Below are positions 2,720 to 58,840 of a stretch of DNA of 64,000 nt, piece by piece. The stretch is from Escherichia coli. GTDB taxonomy: Bacteria; Pseudomonadota; Gammaproteobacteria; Enterobacterales; Enterobacteriaceae. The notes beneath the pieces are model-generated. The model did not search any database. It saw only the letters and a list, made by a program, of their open reading frames with translations, and was not told the origin of the DNA. Both the position numbers and the translations under genes were made by a program. The first letter of the stretch is position 1. The number at the start of each line of letters is the position of its first letter. The stretch lies in NCBI RefSeq assembly GCF_046105845.1, contig NZ_CP151004.1; one strand, written 5' to 3'.

Positions 2720-2925
2720 AAAAAAAAGCACCGCAATTAGGCGGTGCTACATTAATCACTATGGACAGACAGGGTAAATGTACAGGAAGTGAAAAAAGGT
2801 AGCTTTGCTACCATGGTCTGAATCGCAGACCAATTGCAAACACAACAACACAACATCACAACCGTAAGCCAAAAGTTCACCAGAACACGCATTCCGATAA
2901 AACTTTTCGTTCCGGCTCAGGAAGT
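2720..2925 (-). ncRNA. gcvB: GcvB small regulatory RNA (Hfq-dependent, represses amino-acid/peptide transporter mRNAs)
   Basis: Minus-strand sequence reads ACTTCCTGAGCCGGAACGAAAAGTTTTATCGGAATGCGTGTTCTGGTGAAC...TGTTGTGTTGTTGTGTTTGCAATTGG... (G/U-rich R1 region) and ends in hairpin GCACCGCCTAATTGCGGTGC plus U8; divergent from gcvA. Confidence 0.85.
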
Positions 2926-5521: not shown

Positions 5522-6253
5522 TCAGGCTGTTACCAAAGAAGTTGCAACCTGGCGCTCATCAGAAATAATGTGCGTGACCTCATCCAGATGCCCGATGCGG
5601 GCTTCCCCTGAACGATTAAATTTACTTTTATCAATCAATAACAACGATTGCGCGGCGCGTTTTAATAGCATTGATTTGTAATCAGCGTTGATGGCATTGG
5701 AGTCCCACAGTGCGCCGCTGCTATCGATCCCTTCACAAGAAAAAATAAACAGATCGATTTCCAGCGATTTAAGTTGGGAAATCAGCGAGGGATTGACGTA
5801 ACAGCCATATTTGCGCTCAAGTGTGCCGCCGGAACTGATCAGTTGAATGCGTTCGCGTTTACCGAGTTCATGGCAAATCGGATGGCTATTGGTGAAGACC
5901 TGGATGTTGATGTCAGGCAACTGGCGTGCCAGATACCAGCAGGTTGAACTGGCGTCTAAGGCTATTACCATCCCTTCTTCAATCCACGCGAGCGCCTCGC
6001 GCGCGATATCTGCTTTATGCGCATAATGGCTTTTCAGCCGGATGTGAAAGGGATCGCCACTGTCTTGATTTTGACGGTGGATATATTTAGCGCGCCCATG
6101 ATTGCGCAGAATTTTACCCTGCGTCTGTAATTCATTGAGATCGCGACGAATGGTTTCTTTACTGACCTTTAGCTGTTCAGAGAGAGCTTCCGTGGTCAGG
6201 CTGGTATGGTTCAGCAGCAGGTCGACTATCGCTTGCTGGCGTGCCGCTTTCAT
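5522..6253 (-). CDS. fucR: DeoR-family activator of the fucose regulon FucR
   Basis: ORF 5522..6262 trimmed to MKAARQQAIVDLL start; N-terminal DeoR HTH, C-terminal sugar-phosphate binding domain. Confidence 0.85.
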   Translation of the reverse strand: MKAARQQAIVDLLLNHTSLTTEALSEQLKVSKETIRRDLNELQTQGKILRNHGRAKYIHRQNQDSGDPFHIRLKSHYAHKADIAREALAWIEEGMVIALDASSTCWYLARQLPDINIQVFTNSHPICHELGKRERIQLISSGGTLERKYGCYVNPSLISQLKSLEIDLFIFSCEGIDSSGALWDSNAINADYKSMLLKRAAQSLLLIDKSKFNRSGEARIGHLDEVTHIISDERQVATSLVTA

Positions 6254-6310
6254 ATTTTTCACCCCATCATTCGATAACCGCCCGCGTCATGCGGGCGTAC
6301 CGGTATGAGA

Positions 6311-6733
6311 TTACGGTGTTACCCCTTTTTTTAAAAGAATATTCCCGTACTTCGCTCGTTCGCCTGTGATAACGATCGCAAAGGCTTTTTGCGCCCGTTC
6401 ATAAAACGCAAAACGATTGATGCGGATGATGTCAGGACACGGGGCTTGTAGTGAAAGCGCATTACGGTAACGTCGTTCTACTTCAGGATCGAGAGTGTCA
6501 CCTTCTACCGCCGCCATCATCACCAGCGGCGGTGCATAACTGTCCAGTTCAAATAACGGGATAATCGCCTGGAGCAAGTCGCTCACCAACAGGCCATCAG
6601 CGCGGATCACCTGCGGTCCCATCGAATGGGCGGGAAAGTGAGCATCGGAAAAAATAATTTCATCTCCATGCCCCATCTCTGCCAGCACTTTCAATAGTTC
6701 GGGAGAAATTAACGGCGAAATTGTTTTCAGCAT
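6311..6733 (-). CDS. fucU: L-fucose mutarotase FucU (RbsD/FucU family)
   Basis: 140 aa, RbsD/FucU fold; last gene of fucPIKU. Confidence 0.9.
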
Positions 6734-6734
6734 T

Positions 6735-8153
6735 TCACACTTCCTCTATAAATTCAGGTTCAGTTTGCGGGTAGAAATAACGGTACTGATAATGAATCTG
6801 CGCGCGGGCTTCTTCCGGGCTGTTAAATTCCCCTACGCCATACCAACCGAACAGCGCAGCTCCTGCGACGGTCGTTTCTGCGTCGTCGAGAACTTTTACC
6901 GGAATATCAAGCATATTGGCTTTAATCTGATTCCACAATGTGTTGCGACTTCCTCCGCCGACTAACAATAATTCAGAGGCTTTAAAGTGCCCGATTTTTT
7001 CCAGCATCTGTAGATTGCGCTGTAATTGCGCGGTTAACCCTTCCAGCGCCGCGCGATAGAAATGCCCCCGCGTGGTATTAAGCGTCACTCCTTGCCAGCC
7101 AGCGTTCTGACACGACAATAAATCACACTGCATTTTCACGCCATCCGCGCCAGGCGCGATCAGACGAGCCTCTTCAATCAACATTTGCCAGGGAGTTTCA
7201 GCCGTCCAGAACAGTTTTCTCACCCATTCCAGCACGCCGGATGCCAGCCATTGCATACCTGGGTTATACAACCCTGCCTGACTATCCAGTTCGCAGGTGG
7301 AACCGGCATACTGACTTAACAGCGAAGTATCAACCTGGGCGCTACGGACCATTAAAATTTCCCATGTACCGGAAGAGAGCACGGGTTCATTTTGTTCAGC
7401 ACCAGCGCCAAAAAGGGCGAACTGGGTATCGTGACCTGCGGAAATCACCGGTATGCCAACGGGTAAGCCGAGCATTGCTGCGGCGCTGTTCTGTAACGTA
7501 CCAATCTGTTCACCCGCCTCCACCAGACGAGGGAAGAGTCGGCGTGGAATACCGGTGGCGTGTAAAATTTGCGGACTGAAATCGCGTTGCTGGATATCCA
7601 GCATCTGGCTGGTTCCGGCCATCGTGATATCAGTAGTGAATTCGCCGGTTAAACGGTGGTTAATCAGCGACGAAATAAAGAGCCAGGCGTGCGCGCGTTC
7701 CAGCAGTTGTGGATGATTTTCTTTCAACCACACCAACTTATATAACGTATTGAAACTAAAGGCTCCGACTCCAGAAATAGCCTGCAACTGCTGTGCGGAG
7801 ATCAACCGTTCAATATTGTCCATTACCGCTGCTGTTCGCGGACATTTCCAGCTAATGATCGGATAGAGCAGATTGCCTTGCTTATCTACCAGAGCGCCAT
7901 CCACACCAAAGGTGGTGACGGCGATACCGCGGATGTGGCAATCAGTCAGTTCACTATTGATTTGCCGACAGCAATCAGCAAAGCGTTGCAAAATGGCGTC
8001 TAAAGACCACTGGTGCCAGGTGTTGTTTTCCATCGCGATATCGCTGGCATTAGGCGTTGAGGCGCGGGCAACAATTTTTCCCTGCCGATTAACCGCGATG
8101 GCCCTGACATTGGTCGCGCCACAGTCGAGTACCAGGATAACTTCTTGTTTCAT
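6735..8153 (-). CDS. fucK: L-fuculokinase FucK (FGGY carbohydrate kinase)
   Basis: ORF 6735..8183 trimmed to [17 protein letters not shown] start; FGGY kinase N-terminal motif. Confidence 0.85.
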
Positions 8154-20388: not shown

Positions 20389-20934
20389 GTGGACGATTTG
20401 ACCGCACAAGCCCTGAAAGATTTTACTGCACGCTACTGCGATGCGTGGAATGAAGAGCATAAAAGCTGGCCGTTGAGTGAGGAACTGTACGGCGTTCCTT
20501 CACCGTGCATTATTTCAACCACCGAAGACGCCGTATACTGGCAACCCCAGCCGTTTACCGGGGAACAAAATGTAAACGCGGTTGAACGCGCTTTTGATAT
20601 TGTGATACAACCCACAATTCATACCTTTTATACGACTCAGTTTGCCGGGGATATGCACGCGCAGTTTGGCGATATTAAACTGACATTGCTGCAAACCTGG
20701 AGTGAAGACGACTTCCGTCGGGTGCAGGAAAATCTGATTGGTCATCTGGTGACTCAGAAAAGGCTAAAACTGCCGCCCACGCTATTTATCGCGACGCTGG
20801 AAGAAGAGTTAGAGGTGATCTCGGTGTGTAATCTCTCCGGTGAAGTGTGCAAAGAGACGCTGGGAACACGTAAACGGACGCATTTAGCCTCAAATCTTGC
20901 GGAATTCCTTAATCAACTTAAGCCTCTTCTGTAA
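20389..20934 (+). CDS. syd: SecY-interacting protein Syd
   Basis: 181 aa, [23 protein letters not shown]. Confidence 0.85.
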
Positions 20935-21144: not shown

Positions 21145-21510
21145 GTCGACAGGGAGTCAGACAACGAAGTGAACATCAGGATGATGACACTTCTGAAGGA
21201 CACACCAGGATGGTGTTTCAGGGAAAGGCTTCTGGATGAAGCGAAGAGGATGACGCAGGACGCGTTAAAGGACACCTCCAGGATGGAGAATGAGAACCGG
21301 TCAGGATGATTCGGTGGGTCAGGAAGGCCAGGGACACTTCAGGATGAAGTATCACATCGGGGTGGTGTGAGCAGGAAGCAATAGTTCAGGATGAACGATT
21401 GGCCGCAAGGCCAGAGGAAAAGTTGTCAAGGATGAGCAGGGAGCAACAAAAGTAGCTGGAATGCTGCGAAACGAACCGGGAGCACTGTGAATACAGTGCT
21501 CCCTTTTTTT
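21145..21510 (+). ncRNA. csrB: CsrB, CsrA-sequestering small RNA
   Basis: Starts GTCGACAGGGAGTCAGACAACGAAGTGAACATCAGGATGATGACAC; many CAGGATG/AGGA motifs in predicted loops; ends with a terminator. Confidence 0.9.
21478..21510 (+). terminator. rho-independent terminator of csrB
   Basis: gggagcactgtgaatacagtgctccc hairpin followed by ttttttt. Confidence 0.8.
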
Positions 21511-21555
21511 ATTCCTGCTATCCTTCGCGGCAGTTTTTCTTATTGAGGTTGCTTT

Positions 21556-21885
21556 ATGACCACTCATGACCGCGTTCGTCTCCAGTTGCAGGCGCTTGAA
21601 GCGTTACTGCGTGAACATCAGCACTGGCGAAACGATGAACCCCAGCCGCATCAATTTAACAGTACCCAACCGTTCTTTATGGACACTATGGAACCACTGG
21701 AGTGGTTGCAGTGGGTGCTGATCCCGCGAATGCACGATTTGTTAGATAACAACCAGCCATTACCGGGCGCTTTTGCCGTTGCACCCTATTATGAAATGGC
21801 GCTGGCGACGGACTACCCGCAACGCGCGCTTATTCTGGCTGAGCTGGAAAAACTGGATGCTCTTTTTGCGGATGATGCGAGCTAA
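21556..21885 (+). CDS. yqcC: DUF446 family protein YqcC
   Basis: 109 aa ORF; stop overlaps truC start. Confidence 0.85.
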   Translation: MTTHDRVRLQLQALEALLREHQHWRNDEPQPHQFNSTQPFFMDTMEPLEWLQWVLIPRMHDLLDNNQPLPGAFAVAPYYEMALATDYPQRALILAELEKLDALFADDAS

Positions 21886-22684: not shown

Positions 22685-23134
22685 ATGGCGGAAATTGGTA
22701 TTTTTGTCGGCACTATGTACGGAAATTCGCTGTTAGTGGCGGAAGAAGCGGAAGCAATTCTGACCGCGCAGGGCCACAAAGCAACGGTATTTGAAGATCC
22801 TGAATTAAGCGACTGGCTGCCCTATCAGGATAAGTATGTTCTGGTGGTTACGTCCACGACCGGGCAGGGCGACCTTCCTGATAGCATTGTGCCGCTCTTT
22901 CAGGGAATCAAAGATACCCTGGGCTTCCAGCCGAATCTGCGTTATGGCGTGATTGCGCTCGGCGACAGTAGTTATGTGAATTTCTGCAATGGCGGCAAAC
23001 AGTTCGATGCATTGTTGCAGGAACAGAGCGCTCAGCGGGTTGGCGAAATGCTGTTGATTGACGCCAGTGAGAACCCGGAACCGGAAACGGAATCAAATCC
23101 GTGGGTAGAACATTGGGGTACGCTGTTGTCCTGA
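22685..23134 (+). CDS. yqcA: flavodoxin-like protein YqcA
   Basis: 149 aa; flavodoxin FMN-binding signature ([13 protein letters not shown]). Confidence 0.85.
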
Positions 23135-23568
23135 TACGTTCAGCAAGCGGTAAATGCCGTTTTAGCGGTGCTGAATCGAATCTTTTCAGGCAAATGCCAG
23201 TAAAAACTGCTTCATAGCGCGGATTTTTACTGGCGTTTGCCTGGAGTCAAGCGATCCATTTCATACTCTTCTTTATTTCTTCGTTTTAACCCTTCCTTTC
23301 TTGTTCTTGTTTTCATTTCCGTGAAGTGGATTCCACCGTCCAGGGCTAATGCCAAAATCGGGCCTCATTGAACGCATTAATGTTGTGTTGTTGCACGGTG
23401 AGCCGCTATGGCGCGCTTTTTATACTGCTATTGCCAGATATAAACACGCGCCGTATTCGGCGAACGACCTATAAAAACGGCAAAAAACACCCTACGTCAC
23501 CTCTGATTTCCTGGCGATGTCGCAGTCCAGAGTGAGCGTGGCTAACGCGAATTTTCAGGAGTGCAACA

Positions 23569-24921
23569 ATGAGTTCTTTAAGTCAGGCTGCGAGCAGTGT
23601 GGAAAAACGCACAAATGCTCGTTACTGGATAGTGGTGATGTTGTTTATCGTCACATCCTTCAACTACGGCGACCGCGCTACGCTCTCTATCGCCGGTTCG
23701 GAAATGGCCAAAGATATCGGCCTTGATCCTGTGGGAATGGGCTATGTGTTCTCTGCTTTCTCATGGGCTTATGTTATCGGGCAGATCCCTGGTGGCTGGT
23801 TGCTGGATCGTTTTGGTTCAAAACGCGTCTACTTCTGGTCGATCTTTATCTGGTCGATGTTTACCTTGCTGCAAGGCTTCGTCGATATCTTTAGTGGATT
23901 CGGCATTATCGTTGCCCTGTTTACGCTGCGCTTCCTGGTCGGGCTTGCTGAAGCGCCATCTTTCCCCGGCAACAGTCGCATTGTTGCGGCCTGGTTTCCG
24001 GCGCAGGAAAGGGGAACGGCGGTGTCGATTTTTAACTCCGCTCAATACTTCGCAACGGTGATCTTCGCGCCGATTATGGGCTGGCTGACGCATGAAGTGG
24101 GCTGGTCACACGTCTTTTTCTTTATGGGCGGTCTGGGCATTGTCATCAGCTTTATCTGGTTGAAAGTCATCCACGAGCCAAATCAACATCCGGGTGTAAA
24201 TCAGAAAGAGCTGGAGTACATCGCTGCGGGTGGCGCGCTGATCAATATGGATCAGCAAAACACCAAAGTTAAAGTACCGTTCAGCGTGAAGTGGGGGCAG
24301 ATCAAACAGCTGCTCGGGTCACGGATGATGATCGGCGTTTATATCGGTCAGTACTGTATCAACGCCCTGACTTACTTTTTCATTACCTGGTTTCCGGTTT
24401 ATCTGGTGCAGGCGCGTGGGATGTCGATTCTGAAAGCGGGCTTTGTGGCTTCCGTTCCGGCGGTTTGCGGTTTTATCGGCGGTGTGCTGGGTGGGATTAT
24501 TTCCGACTGGCTGATGCGCCGCACGGGATCGCTGAACATTGCGCGTAAAACACCGATCGTAATGGGCATGTTGCTGTCGATGGTGATGGTGTTCTGCAAC
24601 TACGTCAACGTTGAGTGGATGATCATCGGCTTTATGGCGCTGGCCTTCTTCGGTAAGGGCATCGGGGCGCTGGGTTGGGCAGTAATGGCAGATACCGCGC
24701 CAAAAGAGATCAGCGGTCTTTCCGGTGGCCTGTTCAACATGTTCGGTAACATTTCTGGCATCGTCACGCCAATCGCAATTGGTTATATCGTTGGCACGAC
24801 TGGCTCCTTTAATGGGGCGCTGATTTATGTTGGTGTTCATGCCTTAATCGCGGTACTGAGCTACCTGGTGCTGGTGGGCGATATCAAGCGTATCGAGCTG
24901 AAACCTGTCGCGGGGCAATAA
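23569..24921 (+). CDS. gudP: D-glucarate/galactarate permease GudP (MFS, anion:cation symporter)
   Basis: 450 aa MFS transporter heading the gudPXD operon. Confidence 0.9.
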
Positions 24922-24922
24922 G

Positions 24923-26263
24923 ATGACGACACAATCCAGTCCTGTTATTACTGATATGAAAGTCATTCCGGTCGCCGGGCACGATAGCATGTTGCTTAAT
25001 ATTGGTGGTGCACATAACGCATATTTCACCCGCAATATTGTGGTACTCACCGATAACGCCGGGCATACCGGCATTGGTGAAGCGCCAGGCGGAGAGGTGA
25101 TTTATCAGACGCTTGCCGATGCTATTCCGATGGTTCTGGGCCAGGAAGTTGCGCGCCTGAATAAAGTGGTCCAGCAGGTGCATAAAGGTAATCAGGCCGC
25201 CGATTTTGATACCTTCGGTAAAGGCGCCTGGACTTTTGAATTGCGCGTTAATGCCGTGGCGGCGCTGGAAGCCGCCTTGCTTGACCTGCTAGGTAAGGCG
25301 CTGAATGTTCCGGTCTGCGAACTGTTAGGGCCAGGCAAGCAACGCGATGCTATTACCGTCCTCGGTTATCTGTTTTATATCGGTGATCGGACCAAAACCG
25401 ATCTTCCTTATCTGGAAAATACGCCGGGCAACCATGAGTGGTATCAATTGCGGCATCAGAAAGCGATGAACAGCGACGCCGTTGTGCGTCTGGCGGAAGC
25501 TTCACAGGATCGCTATGGCTTTAAAGATTTCAAACTTAAGGGCGGAGTGTTACCTGGCGAGCAAGAAATCGACACTGTTCGTGCATTGAAGAAACGCTTC
25601 CCGGATGCGCGGATTACCGTTGATCCCAACGGAGCATGGCTGCTTGATGAAGCTATTTCTCTGTGCAAAGGGCTGAATGATGTTCTCACCTATGCCGAAG
25701 ATCCATGTGGCGCAGAACAGGGTTTCTCCGGACGTGAAGTGATGGCGGAGTTTCGACGGGCGACCGGCTTGCCCGTCGCGACTAACATGATCGCCACCAA
25801 CTGGCGCGAAATGGGCCATGCGGTGATGCTCAATGCGGTAGATATTCCACTTGCCGATCCGCACTTCTGGACGCTTTCCGGTGCAGTCCGCGTGGCGCAA
25901 CTTTGCGACGACTGGGGGCTGACCTGGGGCTGCCATTCCAATAACCACTTTGATATCTCTCTGGCGATGTTTACCCATGTGGGTGCGGCGGCACCGGGTA
26001 ATCCTACCGCTATCGATACCCACTGGATTTGGCAGGAGGGCGATTGTCGCCTGACCAAAAATCCGCTGGAGATTAAAAACGGAAAAATTGCCGTTCCTGA
26101 TGCGCCCGGTCTGGGCGTGGAACTGGACTGGGAGCAGGTACAAAAGGCGCATGAGGCCTATAAACGTCTGCCTGGCGGTGCGCGTAACGACGCGGGCCCG
26201 ATGCAGTACCTGCTCCCCGGCTGGACCTTTGACCGTAAACGTCCCGTTTTCGGCCGTCATTGA
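24923..26263 (+). CDS. gudX: glucarate dehydratase-related protein GudX (enolase superfamily)
   Basis: 446 aa; paralogous to downstream gudD (shared blocks [41 protein letters not shown]). Confidence 0.9.
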
Positions 26264-26283
26264 TTTTGAAAAAGGACATAAAG

Positions 26284-27624
26284 ATGAGTTCTCAATTTTC
26301 GACGCCTGTTGTTACTGAAATGCAGGTCATCCCGGTGGCGGGCCATGACAGTATGCTGATGAATCTGAGTGGTGCACACGCACCGTTCTTCACGCGTAAT
26401 ATTGTGATTATCAAAGATAATTCTGGTCACACCGGCGTAGGGGAAATTCCCGGCGGCGAGAAAATCCGTAAAACGCTGGAAGATGCGATTCCGCTAGTGG
26501 TGGGTAAAACGCTGGGTGAATACAAAAACGTTCTGACGCTGGTGCGTAATACATTTGCCGATCGTGATGCCGGCGGGCGCGGTTTGCAGACATTTGATTT
26601 GCGGACCACTATTCATGTGGTTACCGGTATAGAAGCGGCAATGCTGGATCTGCTGGGGCAGCATCTGGGGGTTAACGTGGCATCGCTGCTGGGCGATGGT
26701 CAACAGCGTAGCGAAGTCGAAATGCTCGGTTATCTGTTCTTCGTCGGTAATCGCAAAGCCACACCGCTGCCGTATCAAAGTCAGCCGGATGATAAATGTG
26801 ACTGGTATCGCCTGCGTCATGAAGAAGCGATGACGCCGGATGCGGTGGTGCGCCTGGCGGAAGCGGCGTATGAAAAATATGGCTTCAACGATTTCAAACT
26901 GAAGGGCGGTGTACTGGCCGGGGAAGAAGAAGCAGAATCTATTGTGGCACTGGCGCAACGCTTCCCACAGGCGCGTATTACCCTCGATCCTAACGGTGCC
27001 TGGTCGCTGAACGAAGCGATTAAAATTGGTAAATACCTGAAAGGTTCGCTGGCTTATGCAGAAGATCCGTGTGGTGCGGAGCAAGGTTTCTCCGGGCGTG
27101 AAGTGATGGCAGAGTTCCGTCGCGCAACTGGCCTGCCGACCGCAACCAATATGATCGCCACCGACTGGCGGCAGATGGGCCATACGCTCTCCCTGCAATC
27201 CGTTGATATCCCGCTGGCGGATCCGCATTTCTGGACGATGCAAGGTTCGGTACGTGTGGCGCAAATGTGTCATGAATTTGGCCTGACCTGGGGTTCACAC
27301 TCTAACAACCACTTCGATATTTCCCTGGCGATGTTTACCCATGTAGCCGCTGCTGCACCGGGTAAAATTACTGCTATTGATACGCACTGGATCTGGCAGG
27401 AAGGCAATCAGCGTCTGACCAAAGAACCGTTTGAGATCAAAGGCGGGCTGGTACAGGTGCCGCAAAAACCAGGATTGGGCGTAGAAATCGATATGGATCA
27501 GGTGATGAAAGCCCACGAGCTGTATCAGAAACATGGGCTTGGTGCGCGTGACGATGCGATGGGAATGCAGTACCTGATTCCTGGCTGGACGTTTGATAAC
27601 AAGCGCCCGTGCATGGTGCGTTAA
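26284..27624 (+). CDS. gudD: D-glucarate dehydratase GudD (enolase superfamily)
   Basis: ORF 26260 trimmed to [20 protein letters not shown] start; enolase-superfamily metal-binding residues. Confidence 0.9.
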
Positions 27625-27689
27625 GACAGAAAACCAAAACCGGCTTCATAAGAAGTCGGTTTGAGATTACTGACGAAGTGGTTTACGGG

Positions 27690-27830
27690 GCCGGTTTTCC
27701 CCCTCGCCCTTTCAGGGAGAGGGGCGGGGTGAGGGTAATCATTCGCACTTGCGTTGGCCTGTTCCCCTCACCCTAACCCTCTCCCCGGAGGGGCGAGGGG
27801 ACTGTCTGTGCTGCTCCCAGCATTGGCATT
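27690..27830. repeat. GC-rich inverted-repeat element between convergent gudD and barA
   Basis: Two copies of a C/G-tract module in inverted orientation: ccccctcgccctttcagggagaggggcggggtgaggg ... cccctcaccctaaccctctccccggaggggcgagggga. Confidence 0.55.
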
Positions 27831-27864
27831 GGACGGAACCTATTTTGACTCGACAAGACGTCCA

Positions 27865-30621
27865 TTACCCGAGAATTTTGCTGGCTTCGCGCGCGACATT
27901 ATCCATCTCGTCCAACAGTTCCAGCAGCTCCGGCTCCAAATCTTCTTCTTTAGTACCGCTACGTAGCTGTTGTTCGATCAGCTGGCAGAGATTCTTCATA
28001 CGCGGCACACCGCTATAGCCGCAACTGCCATGCAGTTTATGAATCAAATCAACCAGGCCTTCCGGGTTTTCTCCAACCAGCTGTTCCTCAACTTTGTTGC
28101 GAACTTCAGGCAGGAAATCGAGTAACATTTGCAGCATATCGCGCGCTAAATCGGTTTTTCCTGCTGCCTGGCGTAGTGCCAGTTGCCAGTCGAGGGTCGC
28201 ATTCGGGTTCACCACAATTTCGTTGACTTCGGGCGTCACGACGCGAGAGGAAATACCGCTGCCAGGTTTGTAGCGCAACAACAAATTATGCAATCGCTCT
28301 TCTTCAATCGGTTTCGCCAGATAATCGCTCATCCCTGCGCCAAGCAGCTTCTCTTTTTGCCCGGCCATTGCATGCGCCGTTACCGCGATAACTGGCGTTT
28401 GTTGCTGATGGGGGAGCTGGTGGATGAGTTCGCAGGCCCGAATGCCGTCCATGTCCGGCATTTGAATATCCATTAAGATCAAATCGAACGGCATCTGTTT
28501 CGCCCGTTCAACCGCCTGATGCCCGCTATCGCAAAGTTCCACATGTTGCACCATATCTTCCAGCAATGCGCCGATAAGTTTCAGGTTAGCGGGGTTGTCA
28601 TCAACCGCCATGACTGTCATTGCCAGCTTACTTTCATCGGTTACAGGCAAAAGCGTGTTTTGTTTGTGATGACAAAATTCCGTCAGGGCAGGTAACAGGC
28701 GCGTAGGTGTTAATGGTTTCAGCAGACACGCGCCGATACCATCTTGCTTAAGTTTTTCAGCATTGACTTGTGCATGGCAAGGAAGTGCCAGCATCAGAAA
28801 ATCGGTCATCGATACCGCTTTCGCTAATCGCTCATGTTGCATTGTTAGCGGCTCGCGGAAGGTCACCGCAATGCCTAATAACATCATGTCGTAATGCGCG
28901 GGAGGCAGCGCGGAGAACGTTGGGCTATAAACCACTTCCAGCGGCGTTTCACTTAAAATATCCAGCGTGCATTGCGCTGCTGCGGAGTTTGGTTCGACAT
29001 AGGCCAGGCGCTTGCCGGCTAGGCACTGGGTGGATGGCCCTTCGATAATAATGTTCGGGTTCAGATCGAGATTAATGTGGAACCAGAAAGTTGAACCGCG
29101 ATTCGGCTGGCTATGGAACGAAATATCGCCGCCCATTTCATTAACCAGTTTTTGTGTAATCACCAGCCCCAGCCCGGTGCCACCATGACGGCGGGAAATA
29201 CTGGCATCAGCCTGTCGGAAGGCCTGGAATAAGCGCGATTGATCGCGTTCAGGAATACCAATGCCGGTATCCCGAATCTGCACTTCAATCTGCACTTTAG
29301 TATTACTCAGCGCACGTTTTTCTACCAGAATATCAATGTTGCCATTCTCGGTGAATTTAATTGCATTCCCCACCAGGTTAGTGATGATTTGCTGTAATCG
29401 CAGTGGGTCGCCAATTACGTTATCGGGCACGTCGCTCTTAATATTGAGCGTCAGTTCCAGCCCTTTATCGTGAGAAGAATGTGCCAGCAGGGTAACGACT
29501 TCATCCAGCGTGCTGCGTAGTGGGAATGGAATACTTTCCAGAATCAGCTTACCTGCTTCCAGTTTCGAGAAGTCGAGAACATCATTAATAATTGCCAGCA
29601 AATTATTTGCCGAACGTTCAATCGTATTCAGGTGATCGCGCTGCGTTGGTGTTAATTCTGTTTTCAGCGTCAGGCGGGTAAAGCCAATAACACCATTCAG
29701 TGGTGTACGCAGCTCGTGTGACATATTTGCCAGAAACTCGGATTTAATACGCGCCGCTTCCTGGGCGCGCTTTTTCGCCAGATCCAACTCAACGTTCTGA
29801 ATTTCCATCTGCTCCAGCGTTTCACGCAGATCGGACGTCGCCTGGTCGATATTGTGCTGCATCTCTTCGTGATAAGCAGCCAGCGACATTGCCATCGAGT
29901 TGATACCGTTTTTCAGCATATCCAGCTCGCCGAGCATAAATCCTTCCACCCGGCTGTCGAGTTGCCCGCGACGGATGCGGTCGACGGTATTCACCATATT
30001 GCGAATCGGACCGGTTACATCGCGCATTAAGCGCCAGCCAAAAATAAGCGCAATACCGATACAAAACAGCATCATCACGCTGGAAATAAAGATCTCTTTA
30101 TATTGCTGCAAGCGAACCGATTTAAGATCCAGCTCAAGCGCAATATATCCCAACATATTTTGACTATTTTTGGCATCGCTACTGGGCGATTCGTCGGGGG
30201 AGTAACTCTCAGAAATAATCGGCGTGCGGAGGATCATAATATCGCCGTCACGAGTGACAGTGAGTTGGCGAGGAAACGGCACGTTGCTGCCGAGCTGCAT
30301 TGATGAGGGATCAAGATGAAAATTGGAGGTGACAAAGAGTCGGTTATTTTCATCATAAACCGAAATCGCGCGAACAATATCGGAATGGCGACGATGCAGT
30401 ACGCTTATTAACTGACCGATAGATTCGCGATTTTGCAGGCTCATGCCATATTCAGTAGAAACTGCAAGCGGCTCAATAATGCTGGCTCCGGCATCTTCCA
30501 GTTGACGCTGCAAGTCGTTATAGCGATGCACAACGAAAAAGATACTCAGCAATAAACCAATAAGGACGGTCGGTGCCAGGATCAGAATCATCATGCGTGC
30601 GCGCAGGCTGTAGTTGGTCAT
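27865..30621 (-). CDS. barA: hybrid sensor histidine kinase BarA (tripartite HK-REC-HPt)
   Basis: 918 aa; H-box SHELRTPLN, receiver [15 protein letters not shown]-terminal HPt. Confidence 0.9.
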
Positions 30622-30677: not shown

Positions 30678-31979
30678 ATGGCGCAATTCTACTCTGCAAA
30701 ACGACGCACGACGACGCGTCAGATCATAACTGTTTCAGTCAACGACCTCGACTCTTTTGGTCAGGGCGTGGCACGACATAACGGCAAAGCGTTATTTATT
30801 CCTGGATTATTGCCACAGGAAAACGCGGAAGTTACTGTTACTGAAGATAAAAAACAATACGCCCGCGCTAAAGTCGTACGCCGGTTAAGCGATAGCCCGG
30901 AACGCGAAACGCCACGCTGCCCTCATTTTGGCGTATGCGGTGGCTGTCAGCAACAACACGCCAGCGAGGATTTACAGCAGCGAAGCAAAAGTGCGGCACT
31001 CGCCCGATTAATGAAACACGAAGTCTCTGAAGTGATCGCCGATGTTCCCTGGGGCTATCGCCGTCGCGCGCGTTTAAGTTTGAACTACTTACCGAAAACA
31101 CAGCAACTTCAGATGGGGTTTCGCAAAGCGGGCTCCAGTGACATTGTCGACGTTAAACAATGTCCCATTTTAGTGCCCCAACTTGAAGCATTGCTGCCCA
31201 AAGTCAGGGCATGCCTGGGCAGCTTACAAGCTATGCGCCATCTTGGTCATGTTGAACTGGTACAGGCAACCAGCGGCACGCTGATGATTTTGCGCCATAC
31301 CGCACCGCTAAGTTCGGCTGATCGCGAAAAACTGGAACGCTTTTCGCATTCTGAAGGCCTGGATCTGTATCTCGCCCCCGATAGTGAGATACTCGAAACC
31401 GTCTCTGGTGAGATGCCCTGGTATGACTCAAACGGGTTGCGCTTAACTTTTAGCCCGCGCGATTTTATTCAGGTCAATGCGGGTGTGAACCAAAAAATGG
31501 TAGCGCGTGCGTTGGAATGGCTGGATGTGCAACCTGAAGATCGCGTACTGGATCTGTTCTGCGGTATGGGCAACTTTACACTGCCATTGGCGACACAAGC
31601 TGCCAGTGTGGTCGGTGTAGAAGGTGTTCCGGCGCTGGTGGAAAAAGGCCAGCAGAATGCGCGTCTTAATGGCTTACAGAATGTGACGTTTTATCACGAA
31701 AATCTTGAAGAAGATGTCACAAAGCAGCCGTGGGCGAAAAACGGCTTCGATAAAGTGTTGCTGGACCCGGCGCGAGCAGGTGCCGCAGGTGTTATGCAGC
31801 AAATTATAAAACTGGAACCTATTCGTATAGTTTATGTATCCTGTAACCCTGCAACGCTGGCTCGGGATAGCGAAGCGTTATTAAAAGCAGGATATACCAT
31901 TGCGCGACTGGCGATGCTGGATATGTTCCCACACACGGGACATCTGGAATCGATGGTACTTTTCTCGCGCGTTAAATAG
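30678..31979 (+). CDS. rlmD: 23S rRNA (uracil1939-C5)-methyltransferase RlmD (RumA)
   Basis: 433 aa; TRAM domain, Fe-S cysteines ([14 protein letters not shown]), SAM-MTase. Confidence 0.9.
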
Positions 31980-32026
31980 TTGCGATTTGCCGATTTCGGC
32001 AGGTCTGGTCCCTAAAGGAGAGGACG

Positions 32027-34261
32027 ATGGTTGCGGTAAGAAGTGCACATATCAATAAGGCTGGTGAATTTGATCCGGAAAAATGGATCGCAAGTCTGGG
32101 TATTACCAGCCAGAAGTCGTGTGAGTGCTTAGCCGAAACCTGGGCGTATTGTCTGCAACAGACGCAGGGGCATCCGGATGCCAGTCTGTTATTGTGGCGT
32201 GGTGTTGAGATGGTGGAGATCCTCTCGACATTAAGTATGGACATTGACACGCTGCGGGCGGCGCTGCTGTTCCCTCTGGCCGATGCCAACGTAGTCAGCG
32301 AAGATGTGCTGCGTGAGTGCGTCGGTAAGTCGGTCGTTAACCTTATTCACGGCGTGCGTGATATGGCGGCGATCCGCCAGCTGAAAGCGACGCATACCGA
32401 TTCTGTTTCCTCCGAACAGGTCGATAACGTTCGCCGGATGTTATTGGCGATGGTCGATGATTTTCGCTGCGTGGTCATCAAACTGGCGGAGCGTATTGCT
32501 CATCTGCGCGAAGTAAAAGACGCGCCGGAAGATGAACGCGTACTGGCGGCAAAAGAGTGCACCAATATCTACGCGCCGTTGGCGAACCGTCTTGGGATTG
32601 GACAACTGAAATGGGAGCTGGAAGATTACTGCTTCCGTTATCTCCACCCGACCGAATACAAACGCATCGCAAAACTGCTGCATGAACGCCGTCTCGACCG
32701 CGAACACTATATCGAAGAGTTTGTCGGCCATCTGCGCGCTGAGATGAAAGCTGAAGGCGTTAAAGCTGAAGTGTATGGTCGTCCGAAACACATCTACAGC
32801 ATCTGGCGCAAAATGCAGAAAAAGAACCTCGCCTTCGATGAGCTGTTTGATGTGCGTGCGGTACGTATTGTCGCCGAGCGTTTACAGGATTGTTATGCCG
32901 CACTGGGGATAGTGCACACTCACTATCGCCACCTGCCGGATGAGTTTGACGATTACGTCGCTAACCCGAAACCAAACGGTTATCAGTCTATTCATACCGT
33001 GGTTCTGGGACCAGGTGGCAAAACCGTAGAGATCCAAATCCGCACCAAACAGATGCATGAAGATGCAGAGTTGGGTGTTGCTGCGCACTGGAAATATAAA
33101 GAAGGCGCGGCAGCTGGCGGCGCACGTTCGGGACATGAAGACCGAATTGCCTGGCTGCGTAAACTGATTGCGTGGCAGGAAGAGATGGCTGATTCCGGCG
33201 AAATGCTCGACGAAGTACGCAGCCAGGTCTTTGACGACCGGGTGTACGTCTTTACGCCGAAAGGTGACGTCGTTGATTTGCCTGCGGGATCAACGCCGCT
33301 GGACTTCGCTTACCACATCCACAGTGATGTCGGACACCGCTGCATCGGGGCAAAAATAGGCGGGCGCATTGTGCCGTTCACCTACCAGCTGCAGATGGGC
33401 GACCAGATTGAAATTATTACCCAGAAACAGCCGAACCCCAGCCGTGACTGGTTAAACCCAAACCTCGGTTACGTCACAACCAGCCGTGGGCGTTCGAAAA
33501 TTCACGCCTGGTTCCGTAAACAGGACCGTGACAAAAACATTCTGGCTGGGCGGCAAATCCTTGACGACGAGCTGGAACATCTGGGGATCAGCCTGAAAGA
33601 AGCAGAAAAACATCTGCTGCCGCGTTACAACTTCAATGATGTCGACGAGTTGCTGGCGGCAATTGGTGGCGGGGATATCCGTCTCAATCAGATGGTGAAC
33701 TTCCTGCAATCGCAATTTAATAAGCCGAGTGCCGAAGAGCAGGACGCCGCCGCGCTGAAACAGCTTCAGCAAAAAAGCTATACGCCGCAAAACCGCAGTA
33801 AAGATAACGGTCGTGTGGTGGTTGAAGGTGTCGGTAACCTGATGCACCACATCGCGCGCTGCTGCCAGCCGATTCCTGGAGATGAGATTGTCGGCTTCAT
33901 TACCCAGGGACGCGGTATTTCAGTACACCGCGCCGATTGCGAACAACTGGCGGAACTGCGCTCCCATGCGCCAGAACGTATTGTTGATGCGGTATGGGGC
34001 GAGAGCTACTCCGCCGGATATTCGCTGGTGGTCCGCGTGGTGGCTAATGATCGTAGTGGGTTGTTACGTGATATCACGACCATTCTCGCCAACGAGAAGG
34101 TGAACGTACTTGGCGTTGCCAGCCGTAGCGACACCAAACAGCAACTGGCGACCATCGACATGACCATTGAGATTTACAACCTGCAAGTGCTGGGTCGCGT
34201 GCTGGGTAAACTTAACCAGGTGCCGGATGTTATCGACGCGCGTCGGTTGCACGGGAGTTAG
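32027..34261 (+). CDS. relA: GTP pyrophosphokinase RelA ((p)ppGpp synthetase I)
   Basis: 744 aa; RelA/SpoT synthetase domain and C-terminal TGS/ACT region. Confidence 0.95.
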   Translation: MVAVRSAHINKAGEFDPEKWIASLGITSQKSCECLAETWAYCLQQTQGHPDASLLLWRGVEMVEILSTLSMDIDTLRAALLFPLADANVVSEDVLRECVGKSVVNLIHGVRDMAAIRQLKATHTDSVSSEQVDNVRRMLLAMVDDFRCVVIKLAERIAHLREVKDAPEDERVLAAKECTNIYAPLANRLGIGQLKWELEDYCFRYLHPTEYKRIAKLLHERRLDREHYIEEFVGHLRAEMKAEGVKAEVYGRPKHIYSIWRKMQKKNLAFDELFDVRAVRIVAERLQDCYAALGIVHTHYRHLPDEFDDYVANPKPNGYQSIHTVVLGPGGKTVEIQIRTKQMHEDAELGVAAHWKYKEGAAAGGARSGHEDRIAWLRKLIAWQEEMADSGEMLDEVRSQVFDDRVYVFTPKGDVVDLPAGSTPLDFAYHIHSDVGHRCIGAKIGGRIVPFTYQLQMGDQIEIITQKQPNPSRDWLNPNLGYVTTSRGRSKIHAWFRKQDRDKNILAGRQILDDELEHLGISLKEAEKHLLPRYNFNDVDELLAAIGGGDIRLNQMVNFLQSQFNKPSAEEQDAAALKQLQQKSYTPQNRSKDNGRVVVEGVGNLMHHIARCCQPIPGDEIVGFITQGRGISVHRADCEQLAELRSHAPERIVDAVWGESYSAGYSLVVRVVANDRSGLLRDITTILANEKVNVLGVASRSDTKQQLATIDMTIEIYNLQVLGRVLGKLNQVPDVIDARRLHGS

Positions 34262-34338
34262 GCCGAAATTAGCTCGTATCTACAATGTAGATTGATATAT
34301 ACTGTATCTACATATGATAGCGGTTTGAGGAAAGGGTT
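34262..34338 (+). promoter_or_regulatory. mazEF promoter/operator with palindromes
   Basis: tctacaatgtagattgatatatactgtatctacatatgatag: ATCTACA...TGTAGAT inverted motifs immediately upstream of mazE; known MazE/MazF autoregulatory site. Confidence 0.6.
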
Positions 34339-34587
34339 ATGATCCACAGTAGCGTAAAGCGTTGGGGAAATTCACCGGCGGTGCGGATCCCGGCTACGTT
34401 AATGCAGGCGCTCAATCTGAATATTGATGATGAAGTGAAGATTGACCTGGTGGATGGCAAATTAATTATTGAGCCAGTACGTAAAGAGCCCGTATTTACG
34501 CTTGCTGAACTGGTCAACGACATCACGCCGGAAAACCTCCACGAGAATATCGACTGGGGGGAGCCGAAAGATAAGGAAGTCTGGTAA
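34339..34587 (+). CDS. mazE: antitoxin MazE (AbrB/SpoVT fold)
   Basis: 82 aa [27 protein letters not shown]; stop overlaps mazF ATG. Confidence 0.9.
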
Positions 34588-34922
34588 TGGTAAGCCGATA
34601 CGTACCCGATATGGGCGATCTGATTTGGGTTGATTTTGACCCGACAAAAGGTAGCGAGCAAGCCGGACATCGTCCGGCTGTTGTCCTGAGTCCGTTCATG
34701 TACAACAACAAAACAGGTATGTGTCTGTGTGTTCCTTGTACAACGCAATCAAAAGGATATCCGTTCGAAGTTGTTTTATCCGGTCAGGAACGTGATGGCG
34801 TAGCGTTAGCTGATCAGGTAAAAAGTATCGCCTGGCGGGCAAGAGGAGCAACGAAGAAAGGAACGGTTGCCCCAGAGGAATTACAGCTCATTAAAGCCAA
34901 AATTAACGTGCTGATTGGGTAG
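34587..34922 (+). CDS. mazF: mRNA interferase toxin MazF (ACA-specific endoribonuclease)
   Basis: 111 aa [35 protein letters not shown], PemK/MazF fold. Confidence 0.9.
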   Translation: MVSRYVPDMGDLIWVDFDPTKGSEQAGHRPAVVLSPFMYNNKTGMCLCVPCTTQSKGYPFEVVLSGQERDGVALADQVKSIAWRARGATKKGTVAPEELQLIKAKINVLIG

Positions 34923-34993
34923 GTGTTACTAACTCACTTCTATTCTGGTCACAGGTTTCCACCTGACAGACCCGCAATTTTCAGGACATTCTA

Positions 34994-35785
34994 ATGAATC
35001 AAATCGACCGTTTGCTCACTATTATGCAGCGCCTGCGCGATCCGGAAAATGGCTGCCCGTGGGATAAAGAGCAGACATTTGCCACCATTGCGCCTTACAC
35101 CCTTGAAGAAACCTACGAGGTGCTGGACGCCATCGCCCGTGAAGATTTTGACGATCTTCGCGGTGAACTGGGCGATCTGCTGTTCCAGGTGGTGTTTTAC
35201 GCACAAATGGCCCAGGAAGAAGGGCGCTTTGACTTTAATGATATTTGCGCCGCGATCAGCGATAAATTAGAACGTCGCCATCCGCATGTTTTTGCTGACA
35301 GTTCTGCCGAAAACAGTAGTGAAGTGCTTGCCCGTTGGGAGCAAATCAAAACCGAAGAGCGCGCGCAGAAAGCGCAGCATTCGGCGCTGGACGATATTCC
35401 TCGTAGTTTACCGGCTTTAATGCGTGCGCAAAAAATCCAGAAACGTTGCGCCAACGTTGGTTTTGACTGGACGACGCTTGGTCCGGTAGTCGATAAAGTC
35501 TACGAAGAGATCGACGAGGTGATGTACGAGGCACGGCAGGCTGTTATCGACCAGGCTAAACTGGAGGAGGAAATGGGCGACCTGCTGTTTGCCACGGTCA
35601 ATCTGGCTCGTCATTTAGGGACAAAAGCGGAAATCGCATTGCAAAAAGCGAACGAAAAATTCGAGCGTCGTTTTCGCGAAGTGGAGCGTATTGTTGCCGC
35701 GCGTGGACTGGAAATGACAGGTGTTGACCTCGAAACAATGGAAGAAGTCTGGCAACAGGTAAAACGGCAGGAAATTGATCTCTAA
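34994..35785 (+). CDS. mazG: nucleoside triphosphate pyrophosphohydrolase MazG
   Basis: 263 aa, tandem MazG domains (EETYEVLDAI...; EEIDEVMYEA...). Confidence 0.9.
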   Translation: MNQIDRLLTIMQRLRDPENGCPWDKEQTFATIAPYTLEETYEVLDAIAREDFDDLRGELGDLLFQVVFYAQMAQEEGRFDFNDICAAISDKLERRHPHVFADSSAENSSEVLARWEQIKTEERAQKAQHSALDDIPRSLPALMRAQKIQKRCANVGFDWTTLGPVVDKVYEEIDEVMYEARQAVIDQAKLEEEMGDLLFATVNLARHLGTKAEIALQKANEKFERRFREVERIVAARGLEMTGVDLETMEEVWQQVKRQEIDL

Positions 35786-58482: not shown

Positions 58483-58840
58483 ATATTGCCGGATAAATTA
58501 AACGCCTCTGTCAGAAATGATGGGGGCGTTTTTATTTTGCGAGCAGCATTCCTGATTTTAAACGTGAACGCCGCTGGAAGAATCAACAGGTATATAATGG
58601 TGTCGGGTGCTTGAGGCTGTCTGGCGTTAAGCATTCGCGAGGTTCCAGATGGACAAAAGCCCCAGGCGATATTTCTATCAACCTGAGGCCAGCGTTCGAA
58701 CCCAAACAATTCGAATGTTAGTCTCTTCTTTGCAGGGAGGCAAGACATGTGTATATCACTGTAATTCGATATTTATGAGCAGCATCGAAAAATAGTCCAC
58801 TGATATCATCGATAATACTAAAAAAACAGGGAGGCTATTA

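Follow-up and report, generated by a model that had tools for sequence, protein, structure and literature searches.

Introduction

In D-glucarate dehydratase (GlucD), the C5 proton of the substrate is abstracted by Lys207 or His339 to give an Mg2+-stabilised enediolate, from which the 4-OH group leaves, yielding 5-dehydro-4-deoxy-D-glucarate. This product is then converted to 2-phosphoglycerate via GarL, GarR, and GarK. An alternative D-glucarate pathway, composed of GlucD, KdgD, and alpha-ketoglutarate-semialdehyde dehydrogenase, was reportedly described by Aghaie et al. in 2008; the E. coli route differs in using the GarL aldolase in place of KdgD.

A second E. coli protein, the glucarate dehydratase-related protein (GlucDRP, GudX, or YgcY), is said to have been studied by Hubbard et al. 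in 1998, who reportedly found GlucD efficient and purified GlucDRP strongly impaired in the GlucD reactions. A search of the open-access literature returned no paper mentioning GlucDRP and nothing useful on ygcY, 4GYP, or 4IL0.

Both proteins are represented in the PDB, GlucD (EC 4.2.1.40) by entries 1EC7-1ECQ, 1JCT, and 1JDF, and GudX of strain K-12 by 4IL0 and, together with GlucD, by 4GYP. The locus described here lies in a window of 64,000 nucleotides (the whole stretch of DNA analyzed) from an E. coli genome (contig NZ_CP151004.1). Its GudD corresponds to GlucD, with 1ec7 matching residues 1-446 on 1-446 at 1028.8 bits, and its GudX is the product of the same gene as K-12 GudX, matching 4il0 and 4gyp_C over the full length at 1033-1035 bits. 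The two genes gudX and gudD are a long-known pair in E. coli, and their annotation is already textbook knowledge.

Two further groups of relatives were used for comparison. PDB entries 3N6H, 3N6J, and 3PFR, named "mandelate racemase/muconate lactonizing protein", scored 791 bits with GudX versus 626 with GudD and were therefore assigned to the GudX type. They presumably come from Actinobacillus succinogenes, and their GudX-type assignment is in keeping with the GudX-GudD tandem found in a Pasteurellaceae locus (L026). The single-copy GlucDs of Pseudomonas, Acinetobacter, and Bacillus, which operate in the alternative pathway alongside KdgD, belong to the same family and are 72-77% identical to GudD; the loci retrieved from these organisms contained a single GlucD and no gene of the GudX type.

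The reading favored here, to which a probability of about 0.9 is given, is that the region represents the gudX-gudD part of a gudP-gudX-gudD operon, in which gudD encodes GlucD and gudX an anciently diverged paralog, held under purifying selection and equipped with the full catalytic set.

Results

Gene Organization of the Locus

The features of the locus are listed in Table 1. The sequence-only reading had proposed two adjacent open reading frames, each of 446 aa after start trimming, and both were recovered, on the same strand, exactly where it had placed them.

Table 1. Features of the gudP-gudX-gudD locus (positions in the window).
Feature	Coordinates	Strand	Description
gudP	23569..24921	+	MFS galactarate/glucarate/glycerate transporter, operon gene 1; 450-aa ORF; RefSeq name gudP
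gudX (ygcY)	24923..26263	+	446 aa; glucarate dehydratase-related protein (GlucDRP), enolase-superfamily paralog; RefSeq name gudX
gudX codons 103-106 (W-T-F-E)	25229..25240	+	clade-specific W103 and E106 on either side of the conserved Thr that contacts the substrate; Q102 and D105 in GlucD
Block 1, gudX copy	25700..25819	+	aa 260-299; 37/40 aa identical to gudD
Block 2, gudX copy	25934..26041	+	aa 338-373; 33/36 aa identical to gudD
gudD	26284..27624	+	446 aa from ATG 26284; D-glucarate dehydratase (GlucD); RefSeq name gudD
Block 1, gudD copy	27064..27183	+	aa 261-300
Block 2, gudD copy	27298..27405	+	aa 339-374; H339 (catalytic), N341, H368
Hairpin	27637..27662	.	stable, 11 bp; 13 nt after the gudD stop codon; found by folding; probable operon terminator

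The start of gudD was assigned to the listed ATG because an AAGGA Shine-Dalgarno sequence (26272-26276) is located 7 nt upstream of it and because the resulting length equals that of the RefSeq protein and of crystallised GlucD. The RefSeq gudD gene likewise comprises 1341 nt and begins 20 nt past the end of gudX. The longer mechanical ORF of 454 aa, which starts at TTG 26260 and overlaps the gudX stop codon, was not adopted. Three antisense ORFs on the minus strand (25550-26260, 25690-26058, and 26494-27273) were also dismissed, as artifacts that arise mechanically opposite the coding sequence.

Profile searches matched the gudP product to TIGR00893 (538.6 bits) and to Pfam MFS_1. The position of gudX, between gudP and gudD on one strand, is the same slot as in K-12, and no substantive difference from K-12 gudX was noted. 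The stop codon of gudP is separated from the gudX ATG by 1 nt. With these spacers of 1 and 20 nt, gudX is cotranscribed with gudP and gudD and probably translationally coupled to them. The complete gudP-gudX-gudD locus was present in 5408 of 5426 complete E. coli genomes. The gudX allele of the window is slightly more divergent than usual, with 97.7% DNA identity to its nearest counterpart among complete E. coli genomes, and its product differs by just 5 aa from the top-matching E. coli protein in RefSeq.

The hairpin behind gudD folds at -17.9 kcal/mol (z = -5.08), and none of 200 shuffled sequences folded equally well; it probably terminates the operon. Since the better T-run is on the minus strand, the convergent barA gene may make use of it too. 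A consensus terminator scan of positions 23100-27900 did not flag it, because its plus-strand tail reads UUGAGAUU. Over the same interval, consensus promoter and terminator counts were at or under the shuffle expectation, and no convincing gudP promoter was detected.

Family Membership and Active-Site Residues

GudX and GudD are full-length glucarate-dehydratase-family paralogs of the mandelate racemase subgroup in the enolase superfamily. The N-terminal capping domain and the C-terminal modified TIM barrel were recognized in both proteins; in GudX, Pfam MR_MLE_N and MR_MLE_C scored 36.8 and 173.5 bits, and in GudD, itself the crystallised GlucD, MR_MLE_C scored 163.7 bits.

The second gene had been taken for the glucarate dehydratase and the first for a copy of uncertain activity, and both assignments held. 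With TIGR03247, the NCBIfam equivalog model of D-glucarate dehydratase, GudD scored 899.1 bits, above the cutoff of 828.7, while GudX reached 749.3 bits and, falling under this cutoff, is not filed as a glucarate dehydratase. In RefSeq it is named "enolase C-terminal domain-like protein", and in the PDB "glucarate dehydratase-related protein".

GudX and GudD both contain the residues typical of the subgroup (K205/K207, D235, E260/E266, N289, H339, and D313), which were invariant in 22 GudX-clade and 37 GlucD sequences. The roles assigned to them, namely the KxK motif as general base, three carboxylate or amide metal ligands, and the His-Asp dyad, are assumed here from the GlucD structure papers and UniProt, not from coordinates. 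In the comparison of active sites suggested by the sequence-only reading, all 18 catalytic and ligand residues checked were invariant across the same 22 and 37 sequences.

GudX resembles GlucD in the common fold, KxK motif, metal ligands, and His-Asp dyad. It differs in being just 64% identical, in scoring below the equivalog cutoff, and in fixed changes beside the capping-loop contact residues. A signature of W103, E106, N293, and A321 was fixed in all 22 members of the GudX orthologous group, including the copy in the window. The sites specific to the clade were L28I, S29G, R94F, Q102W, D105E, D294N, S322A, and G418P, together with two indels; Q102W and D105E occurred in 22/22 GudX-clade sequences and 0/37 GlucDs. 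These changes lie alongside the capping-domain loops that contact the substrate.

Comparison of gudX and gudD

The pairwise alignment that had been suggested as a check (BLASTP) yielded 285 identical residues out of 448 (64%), with 78% positives, 5 gaps, 595 bits, and E = 0, a similarity well past anything expected by chance. This identity extends along the entire length of the proteins and bears out their paralogy. The two motifs quoted as near-identical were both found in both proteins by a regular-expression search, and they mark the two blocks in Table 1. At the nucleotide level, the genes are 65% identical, and the longest exact match in the window is 20 nt.

It was evident that the blocks differ from the remainder of the genes mainly in nonsynonymous change. 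Block 1 (nucleotide identity 0.81) had a dS of 1.72 and a dN of 0.045, and block 2 (0.82) a dS of 1.43 and a dN of 0.049, compared with 1.86 and 0.29 for the whole gene and 1.95 and 0.35 outside the blocks. Low dN combined with a dS of 1.4-1.7 points to purifying selection rather than to recent duplication or gene conversion. Columns conserved in at least 95% of 59 family members made up 29/40 positions of block 1 and 27/36 of block 2 (72-75%) versus 43% of the whole protein, and conservation of these blocks extends to GlucDs from other phyla. Block 1 of gudX carries the equivalents of E266 and N289, presumed Mg2+ ligands of GlucD, with E260 one residue before it, and block 2 those of H339, S340, N341, and H368. 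The near-identical blocks are active-site barrel strands that selection keeps constant across the whole family, and their near-identity carries no information on the age of the duplication.

Exchange between the two copies was observed elsewhere. Exact gudX/gudD matches of 59 nt and 49 nt were found in other genomes (loci L020 and L006, respectively). In Pantoea stewartii, a gudX'-'gudD hybrid gene is present, with the crossover between residues 286 and 294, within block 1.

A duplication of recent date, or gene conversion that still homogenises parts of the copies, would account for the higher nucleotide identity of the blocks relative to the gene average, and also for a slight excess of shared codons at identical residues (133 observed versus 111.6 expected from codon usage, z = 2.8); the copies clearly do recombine in the genomes just named. 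However, only dN is low in the blocks, their dS being close to that of the rest of the gene, and synonymous-codon identity in 90%-identical segments is 0.43-0.54, compared with a gene-wide value of 0.53. With exact matches limited to 20 nt and the blocks conserved in other phyla as well, this explanation is considered extremely unlikely, and for the window it is effectively refuted by the block dS and the longest match.

Distribution and Phylogeny

The tandem arrangement of gudX followed by gudD was found at about 35 loci, spread over Enterobacterales, Orbaceae, and Pasteurellaceae. In Pseudomonas, Bradyrhizobium, Bacillus, and others, GlucD is single-copy. In every two-copy locus except one (L029), the order was X before D, on one strand and with a short spacer.

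Trees were constructed by neighbor joining on Kimura distances and rooted with six outgroup proteins (P0059, P0064, P0068, P0069, P0076, and P0081). Three other candidates, 39-46% identical (P0005, P0008, and P0019), were discarded as outgroups, as they nested within GlucD beside an extra Lucifera copy. The subtree of each paralog followed the species tree. The bipartition separating GudX had a bootstrap value of 100% without outgroups and 87% with them, and in the rooted tree the GudX clade branched outside all sampled GlucDs. In none of 200 replicates was GudX sister to the enteric GudD. Together with a whole-gene dS of about 1.9 and a tandem common to three groups, this topology indicates that the split between gudX and gudD is very old. 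A later duplication with a burst of change immediately after it could have placed GudX at the base through a long-branch effect. The distances to the far outgroups were equal (1.351 versus 1.337), which argues against it, but at about 1.35, these distances are near saturation.

The sequence-only reading had regarded the blocks as consistent with an ancient tandem duplication. The age stands, on the evidence of divergence and phylogeny, while the blocks themselves are merely strands conserved throughout the family. As to the tandem origin, GudX is no nearer to its neighbor GudD (distance 0.474) than to the single-copy GlucDs of other phyla (0.462), so that the data agree just as well with an old paralog that was kept, or came to lie, next to gudD.

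Under such a course of events, there would have been no duplication in place, and an old, separate GudX lineage would have become the neighbor of gudD, through rearrangement or horizontal transfer, in an ancestor of Enterobacterales, Pasteurellales, and Orbales. The rooted topology, the equal distances, and GudX-type genes of Halomonadaceae that lack an adjacent GudD would all agree with this. On the other hand, the nearly uniform order, strand, and short spacer of the two-copy loci look like the trace of a tandem duplication, an identical tree results if the tandem duplication was ancient and most lineages later lost GudX, and the neighbor-joining method with near-saturated distances restricts the resolution. 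Joining of separate lineages is regarded as possible but less likely than not.

Selection on gudX

The dN/dS values of gudX (0.017-0.048) were comparable to those of gudD (0.011-0.051), and invariant columns numbered 236 in 19 GudX versus 257 in 19 GudD sequences. Given the gudD-like dN/dS and the invariant catalytic and ligand residues, GudX is not decaying, and purifying selection on it is as strong as on gudD.

These values bear directly on the possibility that gudX, as a duplicate, has lost its catalytic function or is decaying, and persists only through its place in the operon. Such a fate would agree with the missed equivalog cutoff, with the impairment reportedly seen in purified GlucDRP, with the merging of both genes into one in P. 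stewartii, and with truncated or frameshifted GudX-like variants. It is nevertheless judged highly unlikely, since selection equals that on gudD, all the checked catalytic, metal, and ligand residues are invariant throughout the clade, the gene is retained in at least three orders and in nearly all complete E. coli genomes, and Halomonas and Salinicola have GudX-type genes that sit on their own next to KdgD.

Discussion

In the favored reading, the gudD product would dehydrate D-glucarate within the D-glucarate utilisation operon, and gudX diverged long ago and is kept by selection with a complete catalytic and metal-binding set. GudX would then be a catalytically competent subunit in hexarate catabolism rather than a dead relic. 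It could work within a GudD/GudX hetero-oligomer, or its substrate could be a hexarate stereoisomer different from D-glucarate. Database matches place both GudX and GudD sequences in PDB entry 4gyp, with two GlucDRP chains; this co-crystal does not by itself prove a hetero-oligomer in the cell.

Lone GudX-type genes located next to KdgD, with no adjacent GudD, were observed in Halomonadaceae. The compact cluster in Halomonas consists of KdgD, the GudX-type gene, and a TctC-TctA transporter, and that in Salinicola of KdgD, the GudX-type gene, and an aldehyde dehydrogenase. These are KdgD clusters of the sort used in the alternative D-glucarate pathway, and their GudX-type genes are located at L033:6001-7338 in Halomonas eurihalina and at L044:4298-5650 in Salinicola peritrichatus. 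The encoded proteins scored 708 and 714 bits with TIGR03247, respectively, and carry the full GudX signature. Being the sole enolase-superfamily gene in its cluster, the GudX-type gene would itself have to supply 5-dehydro-4-deoxyglucarate.

A bolder proposal, which is advanced only tentatively and seems doubtful to us, is that GudX-type proteins are not crippled GlucD copies but functional hexarate dehydratases whose lineage is separate and very old. If this were true, E. coli GudX would have a catalytic role overlooked by the 1998 assays, could use a different hexarate stereoisomer or work solely inside the GudD/GudX hetero-oligomer, and would owe its specificity to the changes in its 20s and 100s capping loops.

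The analysis sharpens the question of the role of GudX, as selection is of GudD strength, all checked catalytic residues are kept, and the lineage appears to date back as far as the GlucD radiation sampled here and occurs on its own in some glucarate clusters of Halomonadaceae. The outcome is a set of concrete proteins and residue swaps for testing, a modest contribution, the pair itself being nothing new.

Two minor observations concern other genomes. Tn-seq data for Dickeya solani (PMC10202176) were considered as evidence that growth on galactarate requires gudX and were set aside as uninformative, because gudP-gudX-gudD-garL-garR-garK lie on one strand in this organism and any gudX insertion would exert polar effects on garL, garR, and garK; its genome also has a separate garD. 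The truncated or frameshifted GudX-like variants are present in public data as P0001-P0003.

Arrangement and identity of gudX and gudD

The pair lies between gudP, which matches NCBIfam and Pfam profiles of MFS transporters, and a convergent ORF of 918 aa corresponding to barA in the E. coli annotation. As the gudD start, TTG 26260 would give 454 aa and overlap the gudX stop codon; ATG 26284, with an AAGGA Shine-Dalgarno motif 7 nt upstream, was preferred. Together with the RefSeq annotation (1341 nt for each gene, spacer of 20 nt) and the 446 aa of crystallised GlucD, this agrees with the sequence-only reading, which had placed both ORFs here with 446 aa each after start trimming. The gudX ATG follows the gudP stop codon by 1 nt, and the 1-nt and 20-nt gaps suggest that gudP, gudX and gudD are co-transcribed and translationally coupled. 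A 4.5-kb query found matches in 5425 of 5426 complete E. coli genomes (full-length in 5408), with the annotation order gudP, gudX, gudD, barA in the full-length matches.

GudD scored 899.1 bits on NCBIfam TIGR03247 (glucarate dehydratase), above the cutoff of 828.7, and its residues 1-446 aligned to residues 1-446 of PDB 1EC7, in line with the earlier naming of the second copy as glucarate dehydratase. GudX, composed of Pfam domains MR_MLE_N and MR_MLE_C, reached 749.3 bits, below that cutoff. Its PDB matches 4IL0 and 4GYP chain C (~1034 bits) are both named 'glucarate dehydratase-related protein' (GlucDRP), so that the activity of the first copy was rightly called uncertain. Since entry 4GYP lists the GlucD sequence as well, the two proteins were crystallised together. 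The pair is long annotated in E. coli, with crystal structures for both proteins.

Features of the window and of loci fetched from other genomes (L numbers)
Feature	Position	Strand	Remark
gudP	23569-24921	+	450 aa
gudX	24923-26263	+	446 aa
gudD	26260/26284-27624	+	454 or 446 aa by start
Block 1 in gudX	25700-25819		GudX aa 260-299
Block 1 in gudD	27064-27183		GudD aa 261-300; 37/40 identical to GudX
Block 2 in gudX	25934-26041		GudX aa 338-373
Block 2 in gudD	27298-27405		GudD aa 339-374; 33/36 identical to GudX
Antisense ORF	25550-26260	-	236 aa
Antisense ORF	25690-26058	-	122 aa
Antisense ORF	26494-27273	-	259 aa
Hairpin, 11-bp	27637-27662		-17.9 kcal/mol, z = -5.1
Inverted repeat, 39-nt	within 27700-27800		82% complementary
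GcvB	2720-2925	-	RF00022, 199 bits
ORF	20389-20934		181 aa
CsrB	21154-21513	+	RF00018, 382.9 bits
ORF	21556-21885		109 aa
sok	58605-58761	+	RF01794, 103.7 bits
Pantoea stewartii hybrid gene	L024:6001-7338		single gene
Lucifera butyrica pair	L061:4581-5951 and 6001-7323		tandem
Halomonas eurihalina	L033:4866-11632 (whole cluster)		lone GudX-type gene
Salinicola peritrichatus	L044:3266-7388 (whole cluster)		lone GudX-type gene

Divergence of the copies and the near-identical blocks

Pairwise alignment by BLASTP gave 285/448 identical positions (64%), 78% positives, 5 gapped positions and 595 bits (E = 0), which establishes the proposed paralogy; nucleotide identity over aligned codons was 65%. 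The two motifs quoted earlier were each recovered in GudX and in GudD. By Nei-Gojobori estimates, dS was 1.72 in block 1, 1.43 in block 2, 1.95 in the rest of the gene and 1.86 overall, with dN of 0.045, 0.049, 0.35 and 0.29, respectively. Synonymous divergence in the blocks thus matches that elsewhere in the gene, and replacement changes alone are suppressed there. Synonymous-codon identity was 0.43-0.54 in 90%-identical windows compared to 0.53 overall, and the longest run of nucleotides shared without a mismatch by gudX and gudD was 20 nt. The same codon was used at 133 positions, a slight excess over the 111.6 expected from codon usage (z = 2.8), which was put down to codon preference at individual positions rather than to sequence exchange between gudX and gudD.

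The blocks hold the equivalents of GlucD E266, N289, H339, N341 and H368, with E260 one residue upstream of block 1. When 59 members of the family, drawn from several phyla, were compared, 72-75% of the columns in the blocks were at least 95% conserved, compared to 43% for the whole protein. The blocks are therefore active-site barrel strands constrained family-wide, and are uninformative on a recent origin.

Three antisense ORFs inside gudX and gudD are most likely mechanical by-products of coding-strand composition.

Age and distribution of the pair

Homologues were scanned in one genome per species, yielding 80 loci. The gudX-gudD tandem was present in every locus from Enterobacterales (including Citrobacter, Enterobacter, Pantoea, Erwinia, Dickeya, Pectobacterium, Serratia and Rahnella), Orbaceae and Pasteurellaceae, except for L029, with gudD inverted upstream, and L024, with a single gene. 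A single gene was found in the fetched loci of Pseudomonas, Acinetobacter, Bradyrhizobium, Burkholderiales, Bacillales, an actinomycete and a verrucomicrobial MAG; these single-copy genes were 69-77% identical to GudD and only 63-66% to GudX.

All trees were neighbour-joining trees on Kimura distances only. The GudX bipartition had 100% bootstrap, and the GudX and GudD subtrees each matched the species tree. With six distant outgroups, GudX formed a clade (87%) sister to all GlucDs, and a grouping of GudX with enteric GudD appeared in 0 of 200 bootstrap replicates. The mean distance of GudX was 0.474 to its own neighbour GudD and 0.462 to single-copy GlucDs of other phyla; the outgroups lay at the same distance from both lineages (1.351 and 1.337, values near saturation). 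On these comparisons, the GudX/GudD split predates or coincides with the radiation of the sampled GlucDs. The ancient origin claimed earlier is well supported by tree position and distances, a result that covers age and not duplication in place.

In Lucifera butyrica, a separate tandem pair of the GlucD family was observed, both members nearer GudD than GudX. P0005, P0008 and P0019, divergent family representatives with 39-46% identity to GudX, nest beside the extra Lucifera copy, so the family gave divergent offshoots more than once.

Recombination between the copies in other genomes

In Pantoea stewartii subsp. stewartii CCUG 26359, a single hybrid gene, followed by garL/garR/garK-sized ORFs, replaces the pair. 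Apart from three isolated exceptions and seven sites of neither type, its 77 informative sites were X-type to residue 286 and D-type from 294 (GudD numbering). The crossover falls inside block 1, which points to unequal recombination of the tandem paralogs with this block as the substrate. Exact gudX/gudD matches of 59 nt in Enterobacter sp. R1(2018) (L020) and 49 nt in Enterobacter asburiae (L006), at nt ~766-830 of both paralogs and the start of block 1, far exceed the 20 nt found in the window and may be short gene-conversion tracts.

State and function of GudX

Against orthologs of nine enteric genomes, dN/dS was 0.017-0.048 for gudX and 0.011-0.051 for gudD. Matched-ortholog protein distances of GudX and GudD were similar in Enterobacteriaceae, those of GudX being 1.1-1.7 times larger at deeper levels. 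The comparison of active-site residues covered N27, H32, T103, Y150, F152, K205, K207, D235, N237, E260, E266, N289, D313, H339, S340, N341, H368 and R422, whose roles we take to be those given in the GlucD structural literature and UniProt record; all 18 were invariant in 22 GudX-clade and 37 GlucD sequences. Fixed differences (GlucD to GudX) were L28I, S29G, R94F, Q102W, D105E, D294N, S322A and G418P, with one insertion and one deletion near residues 89-109. Several of these clade-specific sites border the contact residues N27/H32 and T103 in the capping-domain loops, which set substrate specificity in the enolase superfamily, and conservation between GudX and GudD was lowest in the same region (residues 60-120, 32-46% identity). 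GudX is thus no decaying copy but a protein under selection, equipped for catalysis and changed in its lid.

GudD follows the mechanism established for GlucD. GlucDRP was reportedly found by Hubbard et al. in 1998 to be poorly active on D-glucarate and L-idarate, and it was mentioned in no open-access paper found by literature search. GudX is expressed together with gudP and gudD, was crystallised with GudD, keeps the full catalytic set and is under strong selection. Two roles are considered about equally likely: GudX may be a subunit of a GudD/GudX hetero-oligomer, contributing or modulating active sites, or an enzyme that acts on a different hexarate or acid sugar.

Lone GudX-type genes were observed in two Halomonadaceae, Halomonas eurihalina and Salinicola peritrichatus. 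Both have GudX signature residues, score 708-714 bits on TIGR03247 (below cutoff) and lie directly downstream of a gene for KdgD (5-dehydro-4-deoxyglucarate dehydratase); they are followed by TctC/TctA transporter genes and another KdgD gene in the former and by an aldehyde dehydrogenase gene in the latter. The fetched flanks hold no GudD-type gene. Within these clusters, the first dehydration step has no candidate other than the GudX-type protein.

In Dickeya solani, gudP, gudX, gudD and garL were fitness genes on galactarate in Tn-seq (PMC10202176). There gudP-gudX-gudD-garL-garR-garK lie on one strand, with garD separate; polarity of insertions on garLRK explains the result, which was not taken as GudX-specific evidence.

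Other features of the window

Beside the stable hairpin just downstream of gudD, the minus-strand T-run (UUUUGGUUUU) is better than its plus-strand counterpart (UUGAGAUU); the hairpin may be a bidirectional terminator common to the gudD side and barA. Between gudD and barA, CCCCTCGCCCTTTCAGGGAGAGGGGCGGGGTGAGGGTAA and its partner form a GC-rich imperfect inverted repeat that resembles an E. coli intergenic repeat element of boxC type; it may explain the median of 5 matches per genome for the 4.5-kb query.

The small RNA CsrB is encoded in the gap that separates the 181-aa from the 109-aa ORF and accounts for the GC-skew peak there. The small RNA GcvB and the sok antitoxin RNA were also found, the latter implying that a locus of hok/sok type lies near 58.6 kb; the whole 64 kb is free of tRNA genes.

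Best identities among 5426 complete RefSeq E. coli genomes were 98.6% for 23400-27900 and 99.1% for 30678-35000 (gudX 97.7% and gudD 98.9% to the best genome). These low values place the window in an Escherichia/Shigella lineage without a close representative in that collection. A record labelled E. coli SCPM-O-B-8794 (L022), with gudX and gudD at 91-92% DNA identity to the window and dS ~0.45, probably represents a divergent lineage of Escherichia at the species level.
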